In this document: positions 14,550 to 38,571 of the stretch, piece by piece | Layout: every line of letters starts with the position of its first letter | Numbering within the stretch: the stretch's first letter is position 1 | Source: Escherichia phage vB_EcoS-BECP10 | Direction: 5' to 3' (one strand) | Sequence record: MW286156.1 | Length of the DNA: 47,915 bases | The notes under the pieces: model-generated | What the model saw: the letters and a program-made list of their open reading frames with translations, nothing else | Databases searched by the model: none | Told to the model about the DNA's origin: nothing | Translations under genes and position numbers: made by a program

Positions 14550-17267
14550 ATGGCAATTTATGACGCTGGAACTGCATCGCTTGCAGCTGACGGAACTGTA
14601 ACTGGTGTTGGCACCACGTGGAGGCAACCACTAACGCTAATCCGAGTTGGCGCAACAATGATTTTTAACACCACCCCGACAAGCATTGTTACTATCGCTG
14701 AGATTTTAAGCGATACAGAGATTCGTGTATTCAATGATAAAGGTTTTACTGCGCCAGCTGGGACTCAGTACTCAATCCTTGCTCATGACGGAATTACTGT
14801 CCAAGGTCTTGCTCAGGACGTTGCTGAGACACTTCGTTATTATCAGTCCCGTGAAACAGAGGTTGCAGCGGCAGTTGATGCTTTTAATCAATTTGATTCT
14901 GATTCTTTCCAGCAAAGCGTAAATAATGTCAACATGCAATCTCAGCAAGTTGCTGTTGATGCTGCTCAAGTTTCTTCTGACAAAGATCAGGTATCTTCTG
15001 ATAGGCAGTTAGCTGAAAGTAGCGCTAACTCGGCTTCCTCTTCAGCTACAATAGCAAGCTCTGCTGCGGCTTCTGTGTCATCTGCTCTTGTAGTTGATTT
15101 CTCAAATGGTGGAGAAATAAACTCAAGAACTCAGCCTGCAATTTACTTTAATGACAATCATGTTTCGGTTTATTACTGGTCTGGTAGCGTTCCAAAATCC
15201 ATACCACAAAACTCATCACCACAGTCTACAGGTGGTATTGGAGTTGGTTTTTGGATTCAACAGGATTACACAAGAAGGTTTGAATCAGTATCAGCAATGA
15301 CAAACTCTGCCAGAATTTATGACTTAGAGGTTGTCTATTGTGATTCTTACATTGGTGGTCTTGGTTATGGTGGTGGGTTCTTTGTTTGTAAGCCGGAGTC
15401 ATCGTTATCATATGGATTATCTTCAGGATTGGTTTTTGAATCAAGTACCGGTTATTACTGGGAAAGAATCTGTAGCGGGGAGCTGTCGCCTTGCGAACTT
15501 GGAGCTATTAAGTCATCGACATCAGACTCAACGACACAGATACAGCAAATCCTAGACTCTGGGCTGGCATTAAAGCTTGATAGCGACTACATGGCATCAA
15601 ACCTGGTAATGAGAAATAAATCTTGCTCTATAATTGGTTTTGGCAAGCACAAATCAAGAATAACTCAGCTTAGTTCATCAATTGGCTCTTTAATTGAGGT
15701 ATCTGATTCTTGCTCGCTCATTCATATTGAAGGCATTGCTCTTTACGGCACTGGAGCCCAGCAAGACACGGCGTTTACTGATGGTACTGCTGGGATTTAC
15801 ATCCCTACGCCGACTGGGTTATCAACCAATTACCCATTCAACGCTGGTGCTGACCCTAGAAGGGACTTAACGATAAGAAACACTCACATTGCTGGGTTTG
15901 ATGTTTACGGAATTTTCGTTGCTGCTGGTAACTACTCTCCTGTTCTTGATGATGTTCTTATTCAGCACATAAAAAAAGACGGATTGATTAACGAAACAAC
16001 AGACTTCACATGGAATAACATACAGGTAAACACCTGTGGAAGAAATTGTCTAATACTTAGGAATGCCGGAAACTGTAGGATTGTTGGCGGTAAGTTTATT
16101 TGGTCGGGTTGGTCGGCTTATAATGAGCTTGATGATGCTTATGGCATCCTGATTGATAACTGCCAAAACATCACCATGTCAGCTATAGAGGCGCAGGATT
16201 GCGGTGGTGACGGTGTTAGAATTGTAAACTCTAGAAATGTGGTATTTAATGGATTAAATAGTAACAGGAACAGCATAAACTCAAACTACAGAGATTATAA
16301 CGTTTCGTTTTCAAATAGCTCTGTAAGAATCTATGGTTTTGTTGGGCTTAACTATGTATCTAACAATGGCGATGGAAGGCCAACTTCCGCTGGAAACTTC
16401 AGATTCCTTGACTCAAGATCTGATGTTGTGATCGACGGGGTTGTTGAATCTGGTTACTTTGGCCCAAATTTCTCAGGGGACACTAACTATGTTGCTGAGT
16501 ATTCAGGAAACCTGAAGATAAACGGACTGATAGATAAAAGGAAGACAAGAATTAAGCCAGCAAACGACACTTCAGCTTTTGATGGGGTCTCTAATACACC
16601 AGTATTCGCCGCAGCGGCATCATCAGTTGGGCAGCAATATTGGCTAAGGCTTTCACAGGCAAATAAAGATAAGATTATATGCACTGGATTTGACCCGTCA
16701 CTAGGTTTCACCGCTACATGCAATATATCGCCGACCATAACTGTTGCTGAAGACTTTAACCTTATGGCTATAGGGACTGGTTTTGGAGTTAATAGTAATG
16801 CTCTTTACTTGCAGTATAACGTGATGGCATCAGGAGAACACAGTGTCTCATTATTAATATCAGCATCAGGTGAAACAAGAGTTTTATCAGGTGTGTTGCC
16901 AGTCTCATCAAGAATGGTCAACGGTGGTACTTACAATATTGCTCTTGGTTTTGATGTATCTGGTAAGGTTTGGTGGAGCATCTTAAACCTGAATACTGGA
17001 TTTAGAGTTAGAAGGTCATTTGATTCTCAGTATATAGATATTGATGTCAGACCTATACTAACAACAGCTGGTAACTATGTAACCATGTATTCAGGTCAAG
17101 GCGCTGGTGATGTAGCTTGCTCTGGATATGGCTTTGGTGTTTACGTTGGCGGCTATTCAGATGAGTCTGATTATTGCGCTTCAAGATACTATTCGCTTAA
17201 AGGTGGTGTTGATTTGACAAAACAATCAGTATTTTTGAGTTTGAATGGTGATGTAACGTCACAATAA
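14550..17267 (+). CDS. Tail fibre / tailspike-like protein (905 aa)
   Basis: Large Ser/Gly/Asn-rich ORF with tail-fibre-like N-terminus; RBS AGGAGAAATAAC; bounded by terminators. Confidence 0.5.
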   Translation: MAIYDAGTASLAADGTVTGVGTTWRQPLTLIRVGATMIFNTTPTSIVTIAEILSDTEIRVFNDKGFTAPAGTQYSILAHDGITVQGLAQDVAETLRYYQSRETEVAAAVDAFNQFDSDSFQQSVNNVNMQSQQVAVDAAQVSSDKDQVSSDRQLAESSANSASSSATIASSAAASVSSALVVDFSNGGEINSRTQPAIYFNDNHVSVYYWSGSVPKSIPQNSSPQSTGGIGVGFWIQQDYTRRFESVSAMTNSARIYDLEVVYCDSYIGGLGYGGGFFVCKPESSLSYGLSSGLVFESSTGYYWERICSGELSPCELGAIKSSTSDSTTQIQQILDSGLALKLDSDYMASNLVMRNKSCSIIGFGKHKSRITQLSSSIGSLIEVSDSCSLIHIEGIALYGTGAQQDTAFTDGTAGIYIPTPTGLSTNYPFNAGADPRRDLTIRNTHIAGFDVYGIFVAAGNYSPVLDDVLIQHIKKDGLINETTDFTWNNIQVNTCGRNCLILRNAGNCRIVGGKFIWSGWSAYNELDDAYGILIDNCQNITMSAIEAQDCGGDGVRIVNSRNVVFNGLNSNRNSINSNYRDYNVSFSNSSVRIYGFVGLNYVSNNGDGRPTSAGNFRFLDSRSDVVIDGVVESGYFGPNFSGDTNYVAEYSGNLKINGLIDKRKTRIKPANDTSAFDGVSNTPVFAAAASSVGQQYWLRLSQANKDKIICTGFDPSLGFTATCNISPTITVAEDFNLMAIGTGFGVNSNALYLQYNVMASGEHSVSLLISASGETRVLSGVLPVSSRMVNGGTYNIALGFDVSGKVWWSILNLNTGFRVRRSFDSQYIDIDVRPILTTAGNYVTMYSGQGAGDVACSGYGFGVYVGGYSDESDYCASRYYSLKGGVDLTKQSVFLSLNGDVTSQ

Positions 17268-22326: not shown

Positions 22327-25300
22327 TTACCATACTCCAACCACTACCCTACCTCCATTTGGTAAATTAACAGTTATGCCGTTATTGTTTATTACGACAG
22401 TATTGTTGGTTCCGTTAAACGCGAAGTTACCATTGTTAGCGTACAAACTACCGCGAACGGTAGCGTTACTTAACTCAGCAAAACCAGATTTATCAATTGC
22501 CCAACCAGCACTACCAGCAACATAGTTGTTTGATTGAATCCTGTTACCAATCTTCGCGTTAGTAATTGAACCATCCTGAATCACCGCGCTCTGAATGAAC
22601 ACCTGGTTATTCTCCACAACGAAAGGCAGTGACCACTGACCGGATCCAGAACTAATACCGTTGCTGATTGCGAACCTGTTAGCATCAAAAATAAACTGAC
22701 TACGAACATTTCCACCACTACCAGTTAACTCCATGCTCATTCCAGCGCCGTACTCAACTCCATTGTACTTCAGGCCAAGCTTAACGCCGTACTGAACACC
22801 AACCCCTTCAACCGTAGCGTAAGAGTCAAGCTTCTGATTCAAAGCCGCCTCGTTATCACCAAGCCTTGCGCTTAATTGAGTATCAGCTGTAGCCCTGGCT
22901 TCGGTCTCCGTAGCAAGCGCGGTTTCAATTGTCGTAATCTGACCAACAATCTCATCATCAATCTGCGCTTTAAGCTGCGTGAGAGAGTCCACACGGGCCT
23001 GAGTTTCATCAGCAATCAAACTTACAGCCTGACGATATTCAGCCTTCCTTGCGCCATTCTCGCGCTTCATAACGCGAACGTCAGTATCGTTTGCCAGGGC
23101 GTTCTCTATAATTGCCTCAGCCTGATTCTGGATATCCGTGTTTGCATCAATGGCGTTCTGAAGTAGGTACTTGTAACCATCAGAGTTTTCGATATCAACC
23201 TTGATATCACCAATTATTGCACTTACGTCGTCAGATGCCATGCCCCTTACAAAATCAGTCCATGGCGATACGTTACCTATCCTGTCAATAATCCTCGCTC
23301 TGTACCACCTCACGTTACCTGCTGGTAAAGTGGTGTGCCAGTATTCGTACTGAGGATACGGAACCAGTGTAAGCAGCGATGCGCTCTCTGGATTGTATGT
23401 ACCGTCACCATTATCAGGAACCTGCTGAAGCTCAGTGTACGCAGTGTCAGCTGAATCAGTAGGAAAACCCCACTTAACCCTAATCCCGAAAACCTCATCA
23501 TCAGATGCGGTAATTACAGGCAGCGCCGAAGGTTCCCCAATCTTGCCGGTCAGGCTAACTGTCGTTATATCAGACCAGGCAGATACTGATTTCTGGTCAG
23601 TTACGGCACGAACCCTGACGTCGTAGATGCCAGCGTAAATTCCTTCAATATCAACCTCGGTGTTAGCCGTCTCTGGTACGTTAATCCAGTTACCATTGTT
23701 CTTACGCCATTGTACGTTGTATGTTTTCGCATACTGCACCTTGTCGTAACCAATAACCATCGTCTCAACGCTTAAACCCTGAACTACCTTGCTGTAACTA
23801 GTAACGGTGATATTTTCAGGTGGTAAAATCCTGTCAGGGTCAACGATACTTGTTGGCCTGTCGTCAATATTCACACCATAGTCAATCTCGTCATACTTGT
23901 TCGGGTCATACTGCACCGCAGTGATGCTGTACTGGAATGAATCCTCGCCGTCCGTGTTTGCTTTTTGAATTCCTGTCACAACGTATTGCTGCAACGCCAG
24001 ATTCTGCTTGTCGATTGCAAATACCGTATCCGGCTGAGGTGTGAAGCTGAATGCTGTATTCAGTTCAAGCGTCAACTTATCGGCAGATACTGAAGCGATA
24101 GTCCTGTACTCTGGGCTCCCATCTGGCTTGTTGATTAAAATCCTGTCGCCAGGGTCAGCATCAATAGCGAATGGCACGAACACCTGCAAACCTGTAGCTT
24201 CAACAATTCGACCCGAAAGGTTTAATGTGTAGTTGCTTGACCAAGCCTGGTCATTAACGGCAATTACATCACCAATCATCGGAATCATCCCCTCAAGGCC
24301 AGTTGTGAATGTTACCGTTTCACTTCGAAGGTTTGTTTTCAGCAACCAACGACCACGGCGGTTAGCCTCGCTTCGCCTTACGCAGCCAATTGCAGTCAAG
24401 TCTACAGGGTTGTAACCAAATCGGCGTGTTGCTTCTAAGTCGAATACTGGCTCGACGTCCTGCTGGTAGTTGTTCTGCTCGTCATCAAACTGAACGTTGG
24501 CTGTCGTGTAAAGGCTCTTGTCGCTAGAGAATGTCCTGTTAAACAATCCATCAACAACGTTATCATTAGTGAACACATAGCTTGGCTGGCGCGGCCTGTC
24601 TACAACAATCCCGATTTGCTCACCATCATAGAAGGTTAAACCGCGGAAGATAGAACAGATGTCACGAATAAGCTGATACGCTTCCACTTTCTGCTGAATG
24701 ACAACGTTACAAGTATATCGCGGCTCCATTCCACCCTTACCATCAGGAACCATCTGGTCGCAGAATTGCGCTGCTTCATACAGACCCCATTTATCAATCT
24801 CAACACCAAGTTCTCGCTGATCTAAACCGTAACGCTGGCTAACCACCAGGTCATATAAAACCCAGGCCGGGTTGTCAGACCATGCCATTTTAAAGGTTCC
24901 ATTCCATGCTCCGCTATAAGTTCTTGTCTCTGGATTGTAGTTTGTCGGCACACGGATAAGCTTCCACTTTTTCTTAATGGCTATCGTTGGGATGCCATTA
25001 GGGAACAGGTCAGAACTGAACTCCACATAAACAAGTGCCGTAAGAGGGTAGCGGAACTTAGCGTCGATTACTTCCTGATAGGTTGTAATCTGCATTCCGT
25101 TAACTAGAGTGCTACTTGTTGAGTCTGGCGTTAACTTCCTAATACGAACAAGAGCGCTGCTAAACTCGGCTGGTAGGTTAACCCTGATGCTGCGGTCGTA
25201 ACCTGTTGTAGTTTTACCGTTAGCCACGCCTCTGGTATATTCCGTGTACGCTGCGCCATTAACTGATAAATCGATTGCATATTCACATGTTGTTCCATTT

Positions 25301-25752
25301 AAATCTCCATTCTCTTCTTGCTTAACGAGCCGAGGCCAGAACAGTTTAACGCGGATTGCTGATAGCTGACTGTTGTTAACTGCGATGATGTAAGGTGTGT
25401 CGTTGTTAATTTCACGACTAACCTGAATCTCTGATGCCGCGCCATCTAGTCCTGCGATGTAATCTTGGGATTGAGTGCCGGCGCGAAACTCAGCTGTCAC
25501 ACCTTCATAGTTGAATGAGTTATCCTGGTTCTGTACTGGAACGTCAGCAAGGTAAACATCCTTAAGTGAGAAGCTAGAATCAACTTCGCCATCAGCTACA
25601 GCCAGTAGCACCTTAATCTTGTTAAGTGAAATCAGGTTATCTTCTTGCTCTACAGGCGTGTGCGGCTTCTTGCTACCACCCTTGCTTCCATAAATCTTTG
25701 GCAAATCGGCCATATCATATAACCTCGTTGTTTGTTTAACCATTTGTGCCAT
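22327..25752 (-). CDS. Central tail fibre / host specificity protein (lambda J-like, 1141 aa)
   Basis: Size, position after I/K/L/M, and conserved J-family blocks. Confidence 0.8.
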   Translation of the reverse strand: MAQMVKQTTRLYDMADLPKIYGSKGGSKKPHTPVEQEDNLISLNKIKVLLAVADGEVDSSFSLKDVYLADVPVQNQDNSFNYEGVTAEFRAGTQSQDYIAGLDGAASEIQVSREINNDTPYIIAVNNSQLSAIRVKLFWPRLVKQEENGDLNGTTCEYAIDLSVNGAAYTEYTRGVANGKTTTGYDRSIRVNLPAEFSSALVRIRKLTPDSTSSTLVNGMQITTYQEVIDAKFRYPLTALVYVEFSSDLFPNGIPTIAIKKKWKLIRVPTNYNPETRTYSGAWNGTFKMAWSDNPAWVLYDLVVSQRYGLDQRELGVEIDKWGLYEAAQFCDQMVPDGKGGMEPRYTCNVVIQQKVEAYQLIRDICSIFRGLTFYDGEQIGIVVDRPRQPSYVFTNDNVVDGLFNRTFSSDKSLYTTANVQFDDEQNNYQQDVEPVFDLEATRRFGYNPVDLTAIGCVRRSEANRRGRWLLKTNLRSETVTFTTGLEGMIPMIGDVIAVNDQAWSSNYTLNLSGRIVEATGLQVFVPFAIDADPGDRILINKPDGSPEYRTIASVSADKLTLELNTAFSFTPQPDTVFAIDKQNLALQQYVVTGIQKANTDGEDSFQYSITAVQYDPNKYDEIDYGVNIDDRPTSIVDPDRILPPENITVTSYSKVVQGLSVETMVIGYDKVQYAKTYNVQWRKNNGNWINVPETANTEVDIEGIYAGIYDVRVRAVTDQKSVSAWSDITTVSLTGKIGEPSALPVITASDDEVFGIRVKWGFPTDSADTAYTELQQVPDNGDGTYNPESASLLTLVPYPQYEYWHTTLPAGNVRWYRARIIDRIGNVSPWTDFVRGMASDDVSAIIGDIKVDIENSDGYKYLLQNAIDANTDIQNQAEAIIENALANDTDVRVMKRENGARKAEYRQAVSLIADETQARVDSLTQLKAQIDDEIVGQITTIETALATETEARATADTQLSARLGDNEAALNQKLDSYATVEGVGVQYGVKLGLKYNGVEYGAGMSMELTGSGGNVRSQFIFDANRFAISNGISSGSGQWSLPFVVENNQVFIQSAVIQDGSITNAKIGNRIQSNNYVAGSAGWAIDKSGFAELSNATVRGSLYANNGNFAFNGTNNTVVINNNGITVNLPNGGRVVVGVW

Positions 25753-34611: not shown

Positions 34612-34640
34612 TACAAAAAAGGACGCTCTAAAGCGTCCGT
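34612..34640 (-). terminator. Intrinsic terminator
   Basis: Minus-strand hairpin GGACGC-TTTAGA-GCGTCC followed by TTTTTTTG. Confidence 0.6.
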
Positions 34641-34645
34641 GTTGG

Positions 34646-34894
34646 TTACTTGTACTCGCCGCCGTTTTCAGCTTCGTCTACAGTCTTTGGTTCTTTCTTT
34701 TTAACCTTCTTGCTTTCAATTTCTTCAATTACTTTCTTGGTTGCCTTGCGGTCTTCCATTACCTCAAGTCGACCCTCAGCAATCAATCGCTTAAAACCGT
34801 CATTCAACTCTTCTACTTCAATGATTTGTCCTGGCAGGTAATCATTTCCAGCAAATCGAATAAGGCAAGCACCAACGTGTTCTAACTTAATCAT
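34646..34894 (-). CDS. Hypothetical charged protein (82 aa)
   Basis: ORF track; RBS AGGAGGAAAG. Confidence 0.45.
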   Translation of the reverse strand: MIKLEHVGACLIRFAGNDYLPGQIIEVEELNDGFKRLIAEGRLEVMEDRKATKKVIEEIESKKVKKKEPKTVDEAENGGEYK

Positions 34895-34954
34895 TCTTTC
34901 CTCCTGTTTATTCTATAAATGAATTATATACTTTATGATTCATTTAGTACAGAC

Positions 34955-34979
34955 GTAAAAAAGCCCTCCGAAGAGGGCT
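34955..34979 (-). terminator. Intrinsic terminator after the putative major capsid gene
   Basis: Minus-strand hairpin AGCCCTC-TTCG-GAGGGCT followed by TTTTTTACG. Confidence 0.65.
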
Positions 34980-34984
34980 ATTTA

Positions 34985-35929
34985 TTAGAAGGTGATACCT
35001 TTCATTACTGCAACGGTCAGAGGTCGGTAGATAACCAGGCCAGTAGACTTGGAGGTCACAGGAAACTTGAAGTGCAAATCCTTCGGTTGAGCTGGAAGGA
35101 CGTGAGTAGCTTCTGGAATCTCAATGCTCATGTTCAATGGGTCGTACTCATAAGCAATTGCAGCCTTGCCGTTTGCGCCATCGTAGTTGTCAAGGAGTTG
35201 CAGGAACTCCACCTGTACGCCATTGTTGTTACGGGCAAAGAACTCAAAGTAGCTAATACCAGTATTCGGGACCAGAGTTTGCATTACTCGACGAGCGGAT
35301 GCCGGAAGAAGCAGCCTGTTAGCTCGATGGATGCCTTGGGTTGCTGTTTCGATAATATCCAGCAGGCTATTAACGTCAGCGTAAGCAGTCTGTGCTGTAG
35401 TCCATGCGCCGCTTGGAACTACCTGGTTTACGTTGTCGTAATCGAATACAGACTTAATGCCGTGAGGTGCGGAGCCTTTCCAAACTAGCTTATCAAGCAG
35501 GTTGTCATGAGCTTCGAATGCAAGAGCCTGTTTGCGAGAAGATAGTGATTGACCAGTAGCCGCGCCAGCCGCAATCTCATCGATGGAAACCAGGAATGCA
35601 TTACCAAAACGGAACACCTTACCTTGCTTCTCTTGCATCAGTGCATCAACCGTCGGCAAATCATCTGAATAATCAGCTACAATCTGAGCTAAGCCAACAC
35701 CATCCATTTCGCCGTATTCGAAGTATTTAGCGTAAGCGCCAATTTCGTTAGTGACCGGGAACAGGTTAACTACAGACGTTTCAGCATATTCGCGATCGTA
35801 GTTACGGTTAAGCGTCTGAGTCAGCTGTTTGATGGTCCAAATGCCAGCTGCATCAGCTTTTTCAACACCCATGTTACGCAGGTGTTCGGTGATTTTGTTC
35901 TGCTCGAAAGCATCTAGCTTAATAGTCAT
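34985..35929 (-). CDS. Putative major capsid protein (314 aa)
   Basis: Size, position in head module, strong terminator immediately downstream. Confidence 0.5.
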   Translation of the reverse strand: MTIKLDAFEQNKITEHLRNMGVEKADAAGIWTIKQLTQTLNRNYDREYAETSVVNLFPVTNEIGAYAKYFEYGEMDGVGLAQIVADYSDDLPTVDALMQEKQGKVFRFGNAFLVSIDEIAAGAATGQSLSSRKQALAFEAHDNLLDKLVWKGSAPHGIKSVFDYDNVNQVVPSGAWTTAQTAYADVNSLLDIIETATQGIHRANRLLLPASARRVMQTLVPNTGISYFEFFARNNNGVQVEFLQLLDNYDGANGKAAIAYEYDPLNMSIEIPEATHVLPAQPKDLHFKFPVTSKSTGLVIYRPLTVAVMKGITF

Positions 35930-36009
35930 TCCTATTTATCCTTTTGGTTAACTGTGTACGTTGACATTATACACGAGTTTTAAGACCGCGCAATGGCGGG
36001 TGATAAAGT

Positions 36010-36858
36010 TTAGGCATCAAGTCTTGTTATTCTAACGGTGAAGTCTGGTTGTGTAATTGTGGTAAATGCAGGCCTGCCAGCAATGAAAACCTCAACCCTG
36101 TAAAAATAACCACTAGAGCCATCATTTAGATAGGTGTAAAACTCTACACATCTAGCTGAGGTCACGCCGAATCCTGTGTTAATAAATGTGTAGTTCGATG
36201 CCGATGTGAACACTCCAGAATACTTAACCCTGCGATAAGTATCATCCTCATCGTTGTACTTAACGTCGCCATCAATGTTTGTTGTTCCAGATCCTTCCTT
36301 TAGAGCAAAGAATGTAAATCTTGATGATGATGTTACTTGCACCCTAAACCAAGTGTTAGCTATACCAGGGAATTGAGTGTCCACCCCTGAACCAACTGTG
36401 TTAACTAGGTTAAATTTTTTCCATGTTACGAGCGCTCCTGGATCACCCTTATCACCTTTATCACCTTTTAGTCCCTGAGGTCCAGTATCTCCTTTTTCAC
36501 CCTGCGGACCTTGTGGGCCAGCCATGCCATCCCTACCAGTAGTTCCCTTAAAGCCTTTTGATAATGAAACTATGTAATCGTCAGCGCCAAATATTTGAGG
36601 GTGACCGAAAACCTCCCACTCAGGGTCATCAGCAATTAATTTGTTAGCCTTGCTTATTAATTTAACTCTAGTGCTATCACCGAGAATCCTAAAGTCGGTA
36701 AGCTGCGCATCACTACCCTTAACCATAACAATTGCGATAGTAAATCTATTGTTAATTAAGCTATCAAATGGCATCCATCCTTCCAGCATTTTTGCCTTTA
36801 CTAACCTCTCCAGGTCGCCGTAAGTCTTAGCTACAACTTCCATAAACTCTAAAGCCAT
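36010..36858 (-). CDS. Collagen-repeat protein (282 aa) in the head module, possible head fibre or decoration
   Basis: Uninterrupted Gly-X-Y repeats GFKGTTGRDGMAGPQGPQGEKGDTGPQGLKGDKGDKGDPG (about 36436-36555) followed by a globular C-terminal domain. Confidence 0.55.
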   Translation of the reverse strand: MALEFMEVVAKTYGDLERLVKAKMLEGWMPFDSLINNRFTIAIVMVKGSDAQLTDFRILGDSTRVKLISKANKLIADDPEWEVFGHPQIFGADDYIVSLSKGFKGTTGRDGMAGPQGPQGEKGDTGPQGLKGDKGDKGDPGALVTWKKFNLVNTVGSGVDTQFPGIANTWFRVQVTSSSRFTFFALKEGSGTTNIDGDVKYNDEDDTYRRVKYSGVFTSASNYTFINTGFGVTSARCVEFYTYLNDGSSGYFYRVEVFIAGRPAFTTITQPDFTVRITRLDA

Positions 36859-36912
36859 TTCATTTACTCCATATCGGTTAATAGTCTTAATGATTGTAAC
36901 AGAATTTTGGCA

Positions 36913-36936
36913 ATAAAAAACCCGCCGAAGCGGGTT
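36913..36936 (-). terminator. Intrinsic terminator
   Basis: Minus-strand hairpin CCCGC-TTCG-GCGGG followed by TTTTTTATTG. Confidence 0.65.
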
Positions 36937-36952
36937 ATATTTACACGGTTAA

Positions 36953-37447
36953 TTATTTCTGCTTAACCTGAACTTCAATCAGTGCGCCATCATAAGGTTC
37001 TGGCTGACCCTGCACCGCAGTGCCAGCAATGAAGCCACCTGCGAAAGTCCAACCAGCTGGCTCAACAGCGCCGCTAGAAACAACAATTCCAGTCGCATCA
37101 AGAGTGATTGCAGTTCCGAATGCAGGTGCTGCTGACAGTGTGGTTTTCATCCAGATTCTACCAGCCGTCATTACGTTAATTGCCTCTTGCGGTCGATAGA
37201 AGCCATCAACAGCTTCATAATGCGAGCGAACAGCAACACCATAAACGTTAGCGGTCGTAATGCCAGAACCAACTACAGTTTTATGACCTGCACCAGATGA
37301 GCTAGTTCCAGTAACTTCAACTTCGCTAACACCAACTGCCTGACCAACCTGCACCTGAGCGGTGCCACCTAGAACGCACGCGCCATCGATATTGTAAAGA
37401 GAGGTATCAGATACCATACCCGCTAATGCTGCTTGACGAAATGCCAT
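36953..37447 (-). CDS. Putative head decoration / capsid-associated protein (164 aa)
   Basis: Gly/Ala/Val/Thr-rich; followed by strong terminator, suggesting high expression. Confidence 0.35.
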   Translation of the reverse strand: MAFRQAALAGMVSDTSLYNIDGACVLGGTAQVQVGQAVGVSEVEVTGTSSSGAGHKTVVGSGITTANVYGVAVRSHYEAVDGFYRPQEAINVMTAGRIWMKTTLSAAPAFGTAITLDATGIVVSSGAVEPAGWTFAGGFIAGTAVQGQPEPYDGALIEVQVKQK

Positions 37448-37449
37448 TA

Positions 37450-38571
37450 TTATTTCTCCTTATTGGATTTAGCTTTAGCAATTCGAGCGCGCGGATCAAT
37501 AAGCGTCAACTCTTCTTTGCTGTCAGATTTATCAGAGGCTATGGTAGCCTTACGAACTTCAGCCATTTTATCAGATTCTTTGGCAATGTCGAACGCTGCG
37601 TCAATATACGCGTCAGATTTCTCAGAAACATCCAGGCCAGAGACTTCTTTAACGTAAGCAACTTTGATTGCTTTAGCATCCAGGCCGTCACATTTAACGC
37701 CAGCTTCTGCGGCAACTGCAACCAGAGTTGCCAGCTCATCAGCGTCAGCTTTAGCTTTGGCTACGGCAGCTTCGATTTCGGCAGGAATGCCATCAACTTT
37801 AGCTTTCAGTGCATCGCGCTCAGCTTCCAGAGTGTCAGCTTTGGCTTTAGCCTGCTCCGCATCTGCCTTAACAGCTTCGATGTGGTTAGCAACTTCCGGG
37901 GCGATTTCGAACTCCTGTTCGCCATCGAGTTTAATCTTAATCATCAATTTATCCTCTTTATTTGATTGAACGGTATCAGTATACGGGTTTTCCTGTTCCG
38001 CGTCCAGATTGAGTTTAGCAATACCTGCGCGACCTTTATATACGAGTGCGATATGATTAACAACGATATTCGTCTGTAGCGCATCAAAGCGTACCCAATC
38101 AGCAGGAATCTCATCCTGGCTTGCGTACTCTCCATCAAGCTTGTACTCACCCGTTTCATTACTACCCCAGCCAGGAGACTCAATGTCAACAGTGTTGTAG
38201 CCAACAGAGAGCTCACCAGCAACGCCAGACTTGGCCTTCTCAATTGCTTCCTTGTCGTAAACGGTAAGAGGAACAATCACTGCCGAGTCCTGACGCATTG
38301 CTGACCCAGATACAGAACCAACAACCAACTCTTTAGCATTTTCAGAGTTTACAACCACGTGACCAAGAGTAAGCGGCTTACCCTGGTAACTTTGCAGCGA
38401 ATCGGCTTTAAAAACCTCTGAAGCCGGACGGAACTCTCGGCGCTCTGAACCATCTGGCATATAGTAGGTTTGTACACCTACGCGAGCAACCACTGGTGTG
38501 TCCACGAGAAAACCGTTCTCATCGAAACGGGCTTTTACCTTGGCGCTATCATAACGCATTTTACTCTTCAT
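37450..38571 (-). CDS. Putative scaffolding protein, possibly fused to a prohead protease (373 aa)
   Basis: Ala/Lys/Glu-rich coiled-coil-like C-terminal half; position between head morphogenesis and capsid genes. Confidence 0.4.
   Translation of the reverse strand: MKSKMRYDSAKVKARFDENGFLVDTPVVARVGVQTYYMPDGSERREFRPASEVFKADSLQSYQGKPLTLGHVVVNSENAKELVVGSVSGSAMRQDSAVIVPLTVYDKEAIEKAKSGVAGELSVGYNTVDIESPGWGSNETGEYKLDGEYASQDEIPADWVRFDALQTNIVVNHIALVYKGRAGIAKLNLDAEQENPYTDTVQSNKEDKLMIKIKLDGEQEFEIAPEVANHIEAVKADAEQAKAKADTLEAERDALKAKVDGIPAEIEAAVAKAKADADELATLVAVAAEAGVKCDGLDAKAIKVAYVKEVSGLDVSEKSDAYIDAAFDIAKESDKMAEVRKATIASDKSDSKEELTLIDPRARIAKAKSNKEK

Follow-up and report, generated by a model that had tools for sequence, protein, structure and literature searches.

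The genome of Escherichia phage vB_EcoS-BECP10, an O157-specific, T1-like phage of the Drexlerviridae (Rogunavirus) (PMC8402813), was analysed over its full 47,915 bp, hereafter called the window. Its minus strand contains a complete open reading frame (ORF) with an ATG start at 36010..36858, stop codon included, which encodes a protein of 282 residues and 31.0 kDa. For vB_EcoS-BECP10, GenBank lists an identical product (100%) under the sole name 'collagen-like protein'. We regard it as probably a non-essential head fibre, namely a fibrous capsid decoration protein composed of a DUF1737-like foot, a collagen stalk and an outward knob. The BECP10 gene was already annotated and its collagen motif known; the functional assignment and the DUF1737-like tandem N-terminus are new.

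The ORF is located in the head gene module. Along the minus strand, the gene order is protease/scaffold (37450-38571), capsid cement protein of the E217 gp24/Pam3 gp6 type (36953..37447, PF22758), the 282-residue ORF and the major capsid protein (34985..35929, PF09950), the last being the proposed docking partner. An original prediction, made from the sequence, placed the ORF between scaffold/decoration genes and the major capsid gene with a terminator upstream, and these neighbours bear it out. The terminator scan found an intrinsic terminator just upstream of the ORF (36909..36936, minus strand), with the stem AACCCGC-TTCG-GCGGGTT (36936-36919) followed by a T-run. It closes the protease-cement transcript, and the same terminator is annotated in AHP24, AHS24, and AKS96. 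The ORF itself is preceded by a ribosome-binding site, GGAG, read from the sequence 8 nt ahead of the ATG (36867..36870, minus strand). The promoter scan detected no promoter ahead of the ORF, and its expression would probably rely on read-through of the preceding terminator.

Between the ORF and the capsid gene, a TATAAT hexamer is found 37 nt ahead of the capsid ATG (35966..35971, minus strand), which is annotated as promoter-like in AHS24 and AKS96. The promoter scan called no full sigma-70 promoter at this site. The TATAAT-containing region noted downstream in the original prediction is present.

Foot, stalk and knob of the 282-residue protein

The foot is composed of DUF1737-like unit 1 (residues 1-50; 36709..36858, minus strand), the proposed capsid-binding module, and DUF1737-like unit 2 (residues 51-101; 36556..36708, minus strand), an internal duplicate of unit 1, both delineated with hhalign and AlphaFold2 (AF2). 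In hhalign, the profile of the family N-terminus aligns with phi24B gp84 (residues 2-57) at 96.8% probability (E 2.9e-10, 48 columns). The similarity is visible by eye, as the motif EGWMPFD in BECP10 unit 1 resembles EGWQPYG in gp84, with the common form EGW-P-[YF]-[GD]. The profiles of the two halves align with each other at 96.5% probability (E 1e-9, 47 columns), and the second half also aligns with gp84 (80% probability, E 1.3e-5). Hence, the foot is a tandem duplication of a DUF1737-like unit. Moreover, Pfam DUF1737 (PF08410) is matched by seven of the nine aligned family N-termini (best E 1.6e-9), the relatives P0006, P0007, and Bas01_0010 scoring 29.6, 27.6, and 26.7 bits against a cut-off of 24 bits. 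At the level of sequence profiles, the N-terminal family is homologous to DUF1737. The N-terminus matches no tail-attachment family in Pfam.

The AF2 monomer model was built from ten family sequences and has a mean predicted local distance difference test score (pLDDT) of 74.8. In this model, a beta-alpha-beta-beta arrangement occurs twice, at residues 4-47 (pLDDT 80-90) and 55-101 (pLDDT 70-90 over both). These predicted elements match the published description of the DUF1737 domain of phi24B; the PDB copy searched contained no DUF1737 structure. That domain consists of one helix and three antiparallel strands, and cryo-electron microscopy (cryo-EM) and proteomics identified it as the part of the NanS-p esterase gp84 that binds the capsid. 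It forms a hexamer plugged into the pore of central hexons (bioRxiv 10.64898/2026.04.10.717836).

The stalk (residues 102-141; 36436..36555, minus strand) reads GFKGTTGRDGMAGPQGPQGEKGDTGPQGLKGDKGDKGDPG and contains 13 uninterrupted Gly-X-Y triplets plus a closing Gly, or 14 triplets in a loose count including GAL. The original prediction gave about 13, in agreement with this count. Pfam Collagen (PF01391) matches at 29.8 bits against a cut-off of 27.2. Nowhere else in the six reading frames of the window is there a run of at least five Gly-X-Y triplets, and when the protein was shuffled 20,000 times with its composition preserved, the longest run did not exceed six triplets. It is rich in KGD/KGE charge pairs and would extend over approximately 11 nm if triple-helical. 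The stalk is disordered in the AF2 model, as expected, because a single collagen chain was modelled.

The length of the stalk varies within the family. Compared with AHP24, AHS24, and AKS96, BECP10 has an in-frame deletion of 36 nt (four triplets), which shortens the stalk from 17 to 13 triplets. The missing stretch is exactly one interval between two 12-nt direct repeats, TGGCCCACAAGG, whose sole remaining copy lies at 36509..36520 (minus strand), and the deletion is thus a classic case of repeat slippage. Among the relatives, stalks of 0, 10, 13, 17, 29, and 60-76 triplets are found, corresponding to approximately 0-65 nm. JK06 has 10 triplets and keeps both end domains, and Rogue1 gp21 has 62 triplets in two blocks. 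The Rogue1 blocks are split by a CBM5/12-like (chitin-binding-type) module, which is located between the collagen blocks of the long-stalk members and scores below the Pfam threshold (E 2e-4 to 0.04). It is found at residues 206-254 of Rogue1 gp21 (L017:2489-3934), 205-242 of P0009, 227-247 of P0007, and 214-235 of Bas01_0010, and is absent from BECP10, AHP24, and JK06.

The knob (residues 142-282; 36013..36435, minus strand) extends to the C-terminal RLDA and was assigned from the AF2 model and phrog_31616. Residues 143-279 are all-beta in the model with pLDDT of about 80-90 and form a beta-sandwich, in line with the beta-rich C-terminal domain of roughly 140 residues expected earlier. The knob matches phrog_31616, a family without assigned function. 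It is rare, with three representatives among 1.84 billion proteins in an exhaustive HMMER search, and metagenomic relatives keep it at 81% and 38% identity. Searches of a 5.8-billion-protein index with the isolated N- or C-terminal domain returned almost nothing, the word-index search being limited in sensitivity, and a single-sequence search of IMG/VR found no relatives.

The predicted knob has no significant fold match in the PDB, and residues 142-282 have no Pfam match at E <= 10, C1q (PF00386) included. A C1q/TNF-like head was rejected, as the knob shows neither the Pfam signature nor a ten-strand jelly-roll match to C1q/TNF structures. Of the C1q-like arrangement suggested in the original prediction, the order of collagen followed by a globular domain is retained, whereas the C1q/TNF signature and fold are not. 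The same order is found in C1q/BclA-type proteins, and the C-terminal globular domain could nucleate trimerisation.

Relatives, virion presence and rival explanations

The gene context was surveyed in GenBank phages, and records were counted in a collection of 50,697 phage records. A tandem foot, collagen and a homologous knob occur together in the slot between the cement and capsid genes of AHP24, AHS24, AHP42, AKS96, UDF157lw, JK06, e4/1c, and MM01. The same architecture and slot are found in AN_ECEAS (Braunvirinae), AugustePiccard/Bas01, Rogue1, and one 47-kb metagenomic contig. The gene always occupies the cement-to-capsid slot, in Rogunavirinae, Braunvirinae and the metagenomic contig alike. 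The comparison across T1-like phages proposed along with the original prediction thus finds the slot filled in two subfamilies of the Drexlerviridae and empty in Rtp and ACG-M12. Approximately 42 phage records contain the foot, versus 846 with a homologous capsid protein, and the gene is a minority accessory gene of the Escherichia- and Shigella-infecting members. In phiEB49 gp53, the same foot (97.1% probability) is joined to a non-collagen, fibre-like region.

In AugustePiccard, the slot also contains, beside the collagen protein, a 429-residue GDSL-type esterase (bas01_0009, L014:1620-2909; PF13472, E 4e-13), which is annotated 'putative head outer capsid protein' and recalls the esterase decoration of phi24B. 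Neither Bas01_0009 nor MM01_18, two other slot genes, shows similarity to the DUF1737 anchor at its N-terminus, so Bas01_0009 would need a different anchor.

Two comparisons connect BECP10 with JK06 and Rogue1. The BECP10 protein is collinear with JK06 JK_26 (29% identity over 230 residues, E 2e-19), and both the N- and C-terminal domains of Rogue1 gp21 align with it, at approximately 27-32% identity. Rogue1 gp21 is JK_26 with an expanded stalk, the two end domains being common to both. Since BECP10 is collinear with JK_26 and gp21 is the same protein as JK_26, the BECP10 and Rogue1 genes are orthologous. The best non-self matches in Foldseek are those of JK06, Rogue1, and phiJLA23. Both relatives (phrog_5073 and phrog_22681) share the slot and the end domains with BECP10, which represents a short-stalk member; unlike gp21, with its 62 triplets in two blocks and the CBM5/12-like insert, it has 13 triplets and no insert.

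N-terminal fragments of the family carry the name 'DNA polymerase' in RefSeq and PHROGs (phrog_22681), including AHS24 gp08 (L002:3044-3496), AHP42 gp08 (L018:201-674), and JK_26 (L005:3489-4325). The name appears to descend from the 'hypothetical DNA polymerase I' of JK06, a designation that had already been judged wrong by the authors of the Rogue1 study. The sequence itself gives no support for a DNA polymerase identity.

The ortholog is a component of the virion. CsCl-purified Rogue1 particles showed approximately six bands in SDS-PAGE, and the three analysed were gp21 (59.5% coverage in mass spectrometry), the major capsid protein and the major tail protein (PMC3496638). A visible gp21 band fits approximately 180 copies better than the handful expected of a tail fibre. 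The protein is thus found in purified virions of a relative, where its absence would have spoken against a structural role.

Natural alleles bear on the importance of the knob. In AHP42, a stop codon (W158*) directly follows the collagen segment (L018:201-1085), and in AHS24 an extra G shifts the frame by +1 within the last triplets (L002:2611-3496), a change for which a homopolymer sequencing error is possible. Both knob-less phages were isolated as plaque formers and still lyse O157 (PMC4070988), which indicates that at least the knob is dispensable for plaque growth. In phage DTL, two ORFs (32/33) match phiEB49 gp53 (PMC5816109). Together, the independent disruptions in AHP42, AHS24, and DTL suggest that the distal domain is recurrently lost under laboratory or enrichment growth. 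Dispensability is thus defined here by knob-less alleles; no complete deletion of the gene was observed within the lineage, and the gene is absent from Rtp and ACG-M12.

Several observations weigh against a head fibre. The BECP10 N-terminus itself has no Pfam DUF1737 match even at E <= 10, and pairwise BLASTP of this region against phi24B gp84 finds nothing, so the link to DUF1737 is transitive and passes through the family profiles. The capsid-binding role of DUF1737 comes from one preprint on a T=9 podophage. Moreover, the phi24B hexamer is made of single units, and a trimer of tandem units is an extrapolation from it. Negative-stain electron microscopy of Rogue1 noted no head fibres. PHROG (phrog_5073) and RefSeq label the family 'tail fiber protein', and among the BFVD structural neighbours of the predicted model are a few phage proteins with tail fiber or tail fiber-like names. 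In the AHP24 group, the protein was not among the seven bands cut from virions, and band patterns were identical for phages with intact and disrupted alleles (PMC4070988). The protein may therefore be scarce or co-migrate in this lineage, or the result, covering seven bands only, may be uninformative.

The gel result also touches on the idea that, in BECP10 and the phages closest to it, the gene is only a remnant in decay, poorly expressed and without a role in the particle, and that only long-stalk versions such as Rogue1 gp21 are functional. The strong terminator directly upstream, the lack of a detected promoter ahead of the ORF, the stalk shrunk from 17 to 13 triplets by repeat slippage, the disrupted alleles of AHS24 and AHP42, two of four phages in Niu et al., and the absence from the identified AHP24-group virion bands would all be in line with decay. 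However, the BECP10, AHP24, and AKS96 alleles are intact, with 282-294 codons and a good ribosome-binding site, and the BECP10 changes all preserve the reading frame. Both end domains are also kept in JK06, whose version is shorter still at 10 triplets. Independent metagenomic relatives conserve the knob at the identities given above, and read-through of a terminator commonly serves to hold expression at a low ratio. We therefore consider a remnant very improbable.

A second explanation concerns the neck. Knob homologues with a different short N-terminus (P0005 and P0022) occur in PhiTE-like myophage contigs, where their genes directly precede the head-tail adaptor gene and lie outside the tail-tip region. 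This placement would suit a neck or collar whisker at the portal/connector, like T4 fibritin or the neck-passage-structure proteins of lactococcal phages, and such a whisker might sense the environment or assist assembly. Lactococcal phages do have neck fibres of a collagen-like kind, and a position at the neck would be in keeping with few copies and with the lack of the protein among the AHP24 gel bands. Against it, DUF1737 was seen at hexon centres rather than at the neck, the Drexlerviridae gene lies between the cement and capsid genes rather than beside connector genes, and the strong Rogue1 band argues for many copies. We give the neck whisker a slim chance.

In the PhiTE-like contigs (L009:778-6395 and L011:760-3275), the head-tail adaptor gene is immediately preceded by a row of two or three collagen-repeat genes, encoding 1093, 107, and 424 residues in the first and 537 and 287 residues in the second. 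The last collagen gene of each contig carries a BECP10-type knob. These genes may represent a parallel cluster of head or neck fibres in an unrelated phage group.

The database labels raise the question whether the head module might here encode a receptor-binding accessory or a tail or side-tail fibre, with its N-terminus on the tail tube, neck or baseplate and its knob aiding host recognition. Collagen repeats are a usual feature of phage tail fibres, and the PHROG families hit via the collagen segment are for the most part tail families. Full-length relatives are placed in the 'tail fiber protein' family phrog_5073, several RefSeq entries carry tail fiber labels, and the BFVD neighbours named in this way are from Aeromonas phage 65.2 and phage JS10. 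In addition, phiEB49 gp53 joins the foot to a region that, read by eye, seems tail-fibre-like (GKPSTF motif, coiled-coil end), and particles of UDF157lw have star-like distal fibres.

Within the phage collection, about 40 Drexlerviridae records contain this gene and mostly label it 'tail fiber protein', 'DNA polymerase' or 'hypothetical'. However, the tail fiber labels are automatic and trace to the collagen motif: the PHROG tail matches fall on the collagen segment or represent phrog_5073, the gene's own family. No experiment placing the family on the tail was found in the literature consulted. The gene is thus not a known tail-fibre gene in close relatives beyond such automatic labels, a point on which the original prediction had depended. 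The N-terminus is homologous to a capsid-hexon domain and matches no Pfam tail-attachment family. The tail-tip genes are 10-20 kb away from the ORF, with the whole tail module in between. Other parts of the window encode the recognised receptor-binding proteins, namely a J-like fibre at 22327-25752 and, at 14550-17267, a lateral fibre or tailspike. The BECP10 authors ascribe O-antigen recognition to a tailspike (PMC8402813). Rogue1 gp21 is among few visible bands, which is atypical for a low-copy fibre, and truncation of the knob leaves plaque formation on O157. A tail fibre is therefore unlikely.

Each of these rivals fits fewer observations than the head fibre. The original prediction had favoured a head fibre or trimeric decoration protein over a tail fibre, and this preference is supported by four independent lines, the DUF1737 homology, the Rogue1 virion band, the conserved slot and the viable knob knock-outs, whereas the trimer and the capsid site are the parts that would follow by extension.

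Proposed docking on the capsid and known counterparts

In the proposed head fibre, three chains would join via the 13-triplet collagen segment and form the stalk of approximately 11 nm. The two tandem DUF1737-like units of each chain would anchor the trimer to the outer face of the mature capsid, and the most likely site is the central pore of the major-capsid-protein hexamers, as the DUF1737 homology and the virion presence of the ortholog together suggest. Three chains with two units each would provide six units, matching the six-fold DUF1737 ring on phi24B hexons. The knob would point outward and probably serve for weak adhesion to carbohydrate or surface material, such as the host envelope, mucus or biofilm, rather than for infection-triggering receptor binding. 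In the literature, nothing specific was found on cryo-EM of Drexlerviridae capsids or on collagen head fibres.

More tentatively, the family might form a modular head-fibre system in Escherichia/Shigella Drexlerviridae. In such a system, the duplicated foot would solve the 3:6 mismatch, slippage would rapidly adjust the spacer between 0 and approximately 76 triplets (about 0-65 nm), and the adhesin knob would be lost repeatedly during laboratory propagation.

The closest functional analogue is gp12 of SPP1, and the closest homologue of the anchor is gp84 of phi24B. SPP1 gp12 is a non-essential collagen-like trimer that is present in 180 copies on the outside of the mature capsid at hexon centres (PMC6813328). 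Like the BECP10 gene, that of gp12 comes after the scaffold and directly precedes the major capsid gene (the SPP1 order 11-12-13 was confirmed). In contrast to the BECP10 protein, gp12 has 64 residues and eight triplets, without a DUF1737-like foot or a beta-sandwich knob, and it is reported to bind via its own termini to the Glu197 ring of the capsid A-loops (PMC6813328). BLASTP of SPP1 gp12 against the BECP10 protein aligns the Gly-X-Y region only, so the relation between the two proteins is one of analogy rather than homology.

Similar to the BECP10 protein, phi24B gp84 possesses the homologous N-terminal anchor and is the product of an accessory gene, and it displays a functional passenger outward from the capsid. 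It differs in having one DUF1737 unit that forms a hexamer, and a SASA esterase and lectin-like passenger that is proposed to be cleaved off (bioRxiv 10.64898/2026.04.10.717836), whereas BECP10 combines two tandem units with a collagen stalk and an unrelated knob. The gp84 gene lies beside the stx/lysis region, in contrast to the head-module position in BECP10.

T4 Hoc, T5 pb10, and phi29 gp8.5 are dispensable outward capsid decorations, as proposed for the BECP10 protein, and weak carbohydrate or surface adhesion has been proposed for them (PMC7602432, PMC5292684). Hoc and pb10 bind hexon centres as monomers, and phi29 gp8.5 is a trimeric fibre. Their folds (Ig-like domains or helical coiled coil) differ, and they have no sequence or fold relation to the BECP10 protein.

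With SPP1 gp12 as the first collagen-type capsid decoration, a head fibre in BECP10 would be the second, and it would also be the first DUF1737 anchor carrying a fibre instead of an enzyme, extending this anchor from a T=9 podophage to T1-like siphophages. If the assignment is true, DUF1737 would represent a portable capsid-display anchor across unrelated HK97-fold capsids, and several dozen entries named 'tail fiber protein' or 'DNA polymerase' would be capsid decorations. The geometry of tandem anchors in a trimer offers a concrete structural hypothesis for three-fold fibres on six-fold capsomers.

The assignment also has practical aspects. Counting the gene as a receptor-binding protein could mislead host-range prediction for, and engineering of, O157-targeting biocontrol phages. 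Small, dispensable and facing outward, a capsid protein whose foot is defined would be a natural display scaffold, and loss in propagated stocks, as seen in AHS24, AHP42, and DTL, bears on the quality control of phage products.

Further features of the head module

The capsid and cement genes of BECP10 and the AHP24 group match those of ACG-M12 and Rtp-type phages at approximately 75% nucleotide identity, whereas the flanking protease and head-morphogenesis genes match Rogue1 and JK06 at approximately 92%. These two sets match different phages, which places a mosaic junction near the fibre slot. A discordant capsid phylogeny was also remarked by Niu et al.

Directly downstream of the capsid gene, an 82-residue DUF7444 ORF (34646-34894, minus strand) is flanked by two strong bidirectional hairpin terminators (34962-34979 and 34621-34638), and forms a small transcription unit of its own (region 34621-34979). 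In some relatives, but not in BECP10, HNH endonuclease genes are found beside the major capsid gene and beside the terminase (L010:10518-11003; Rogue1_0023, L017:5037-5291; L010:2548-3006). The head module is thus a hotspot not only of decoration genes but also of mobile insertions.

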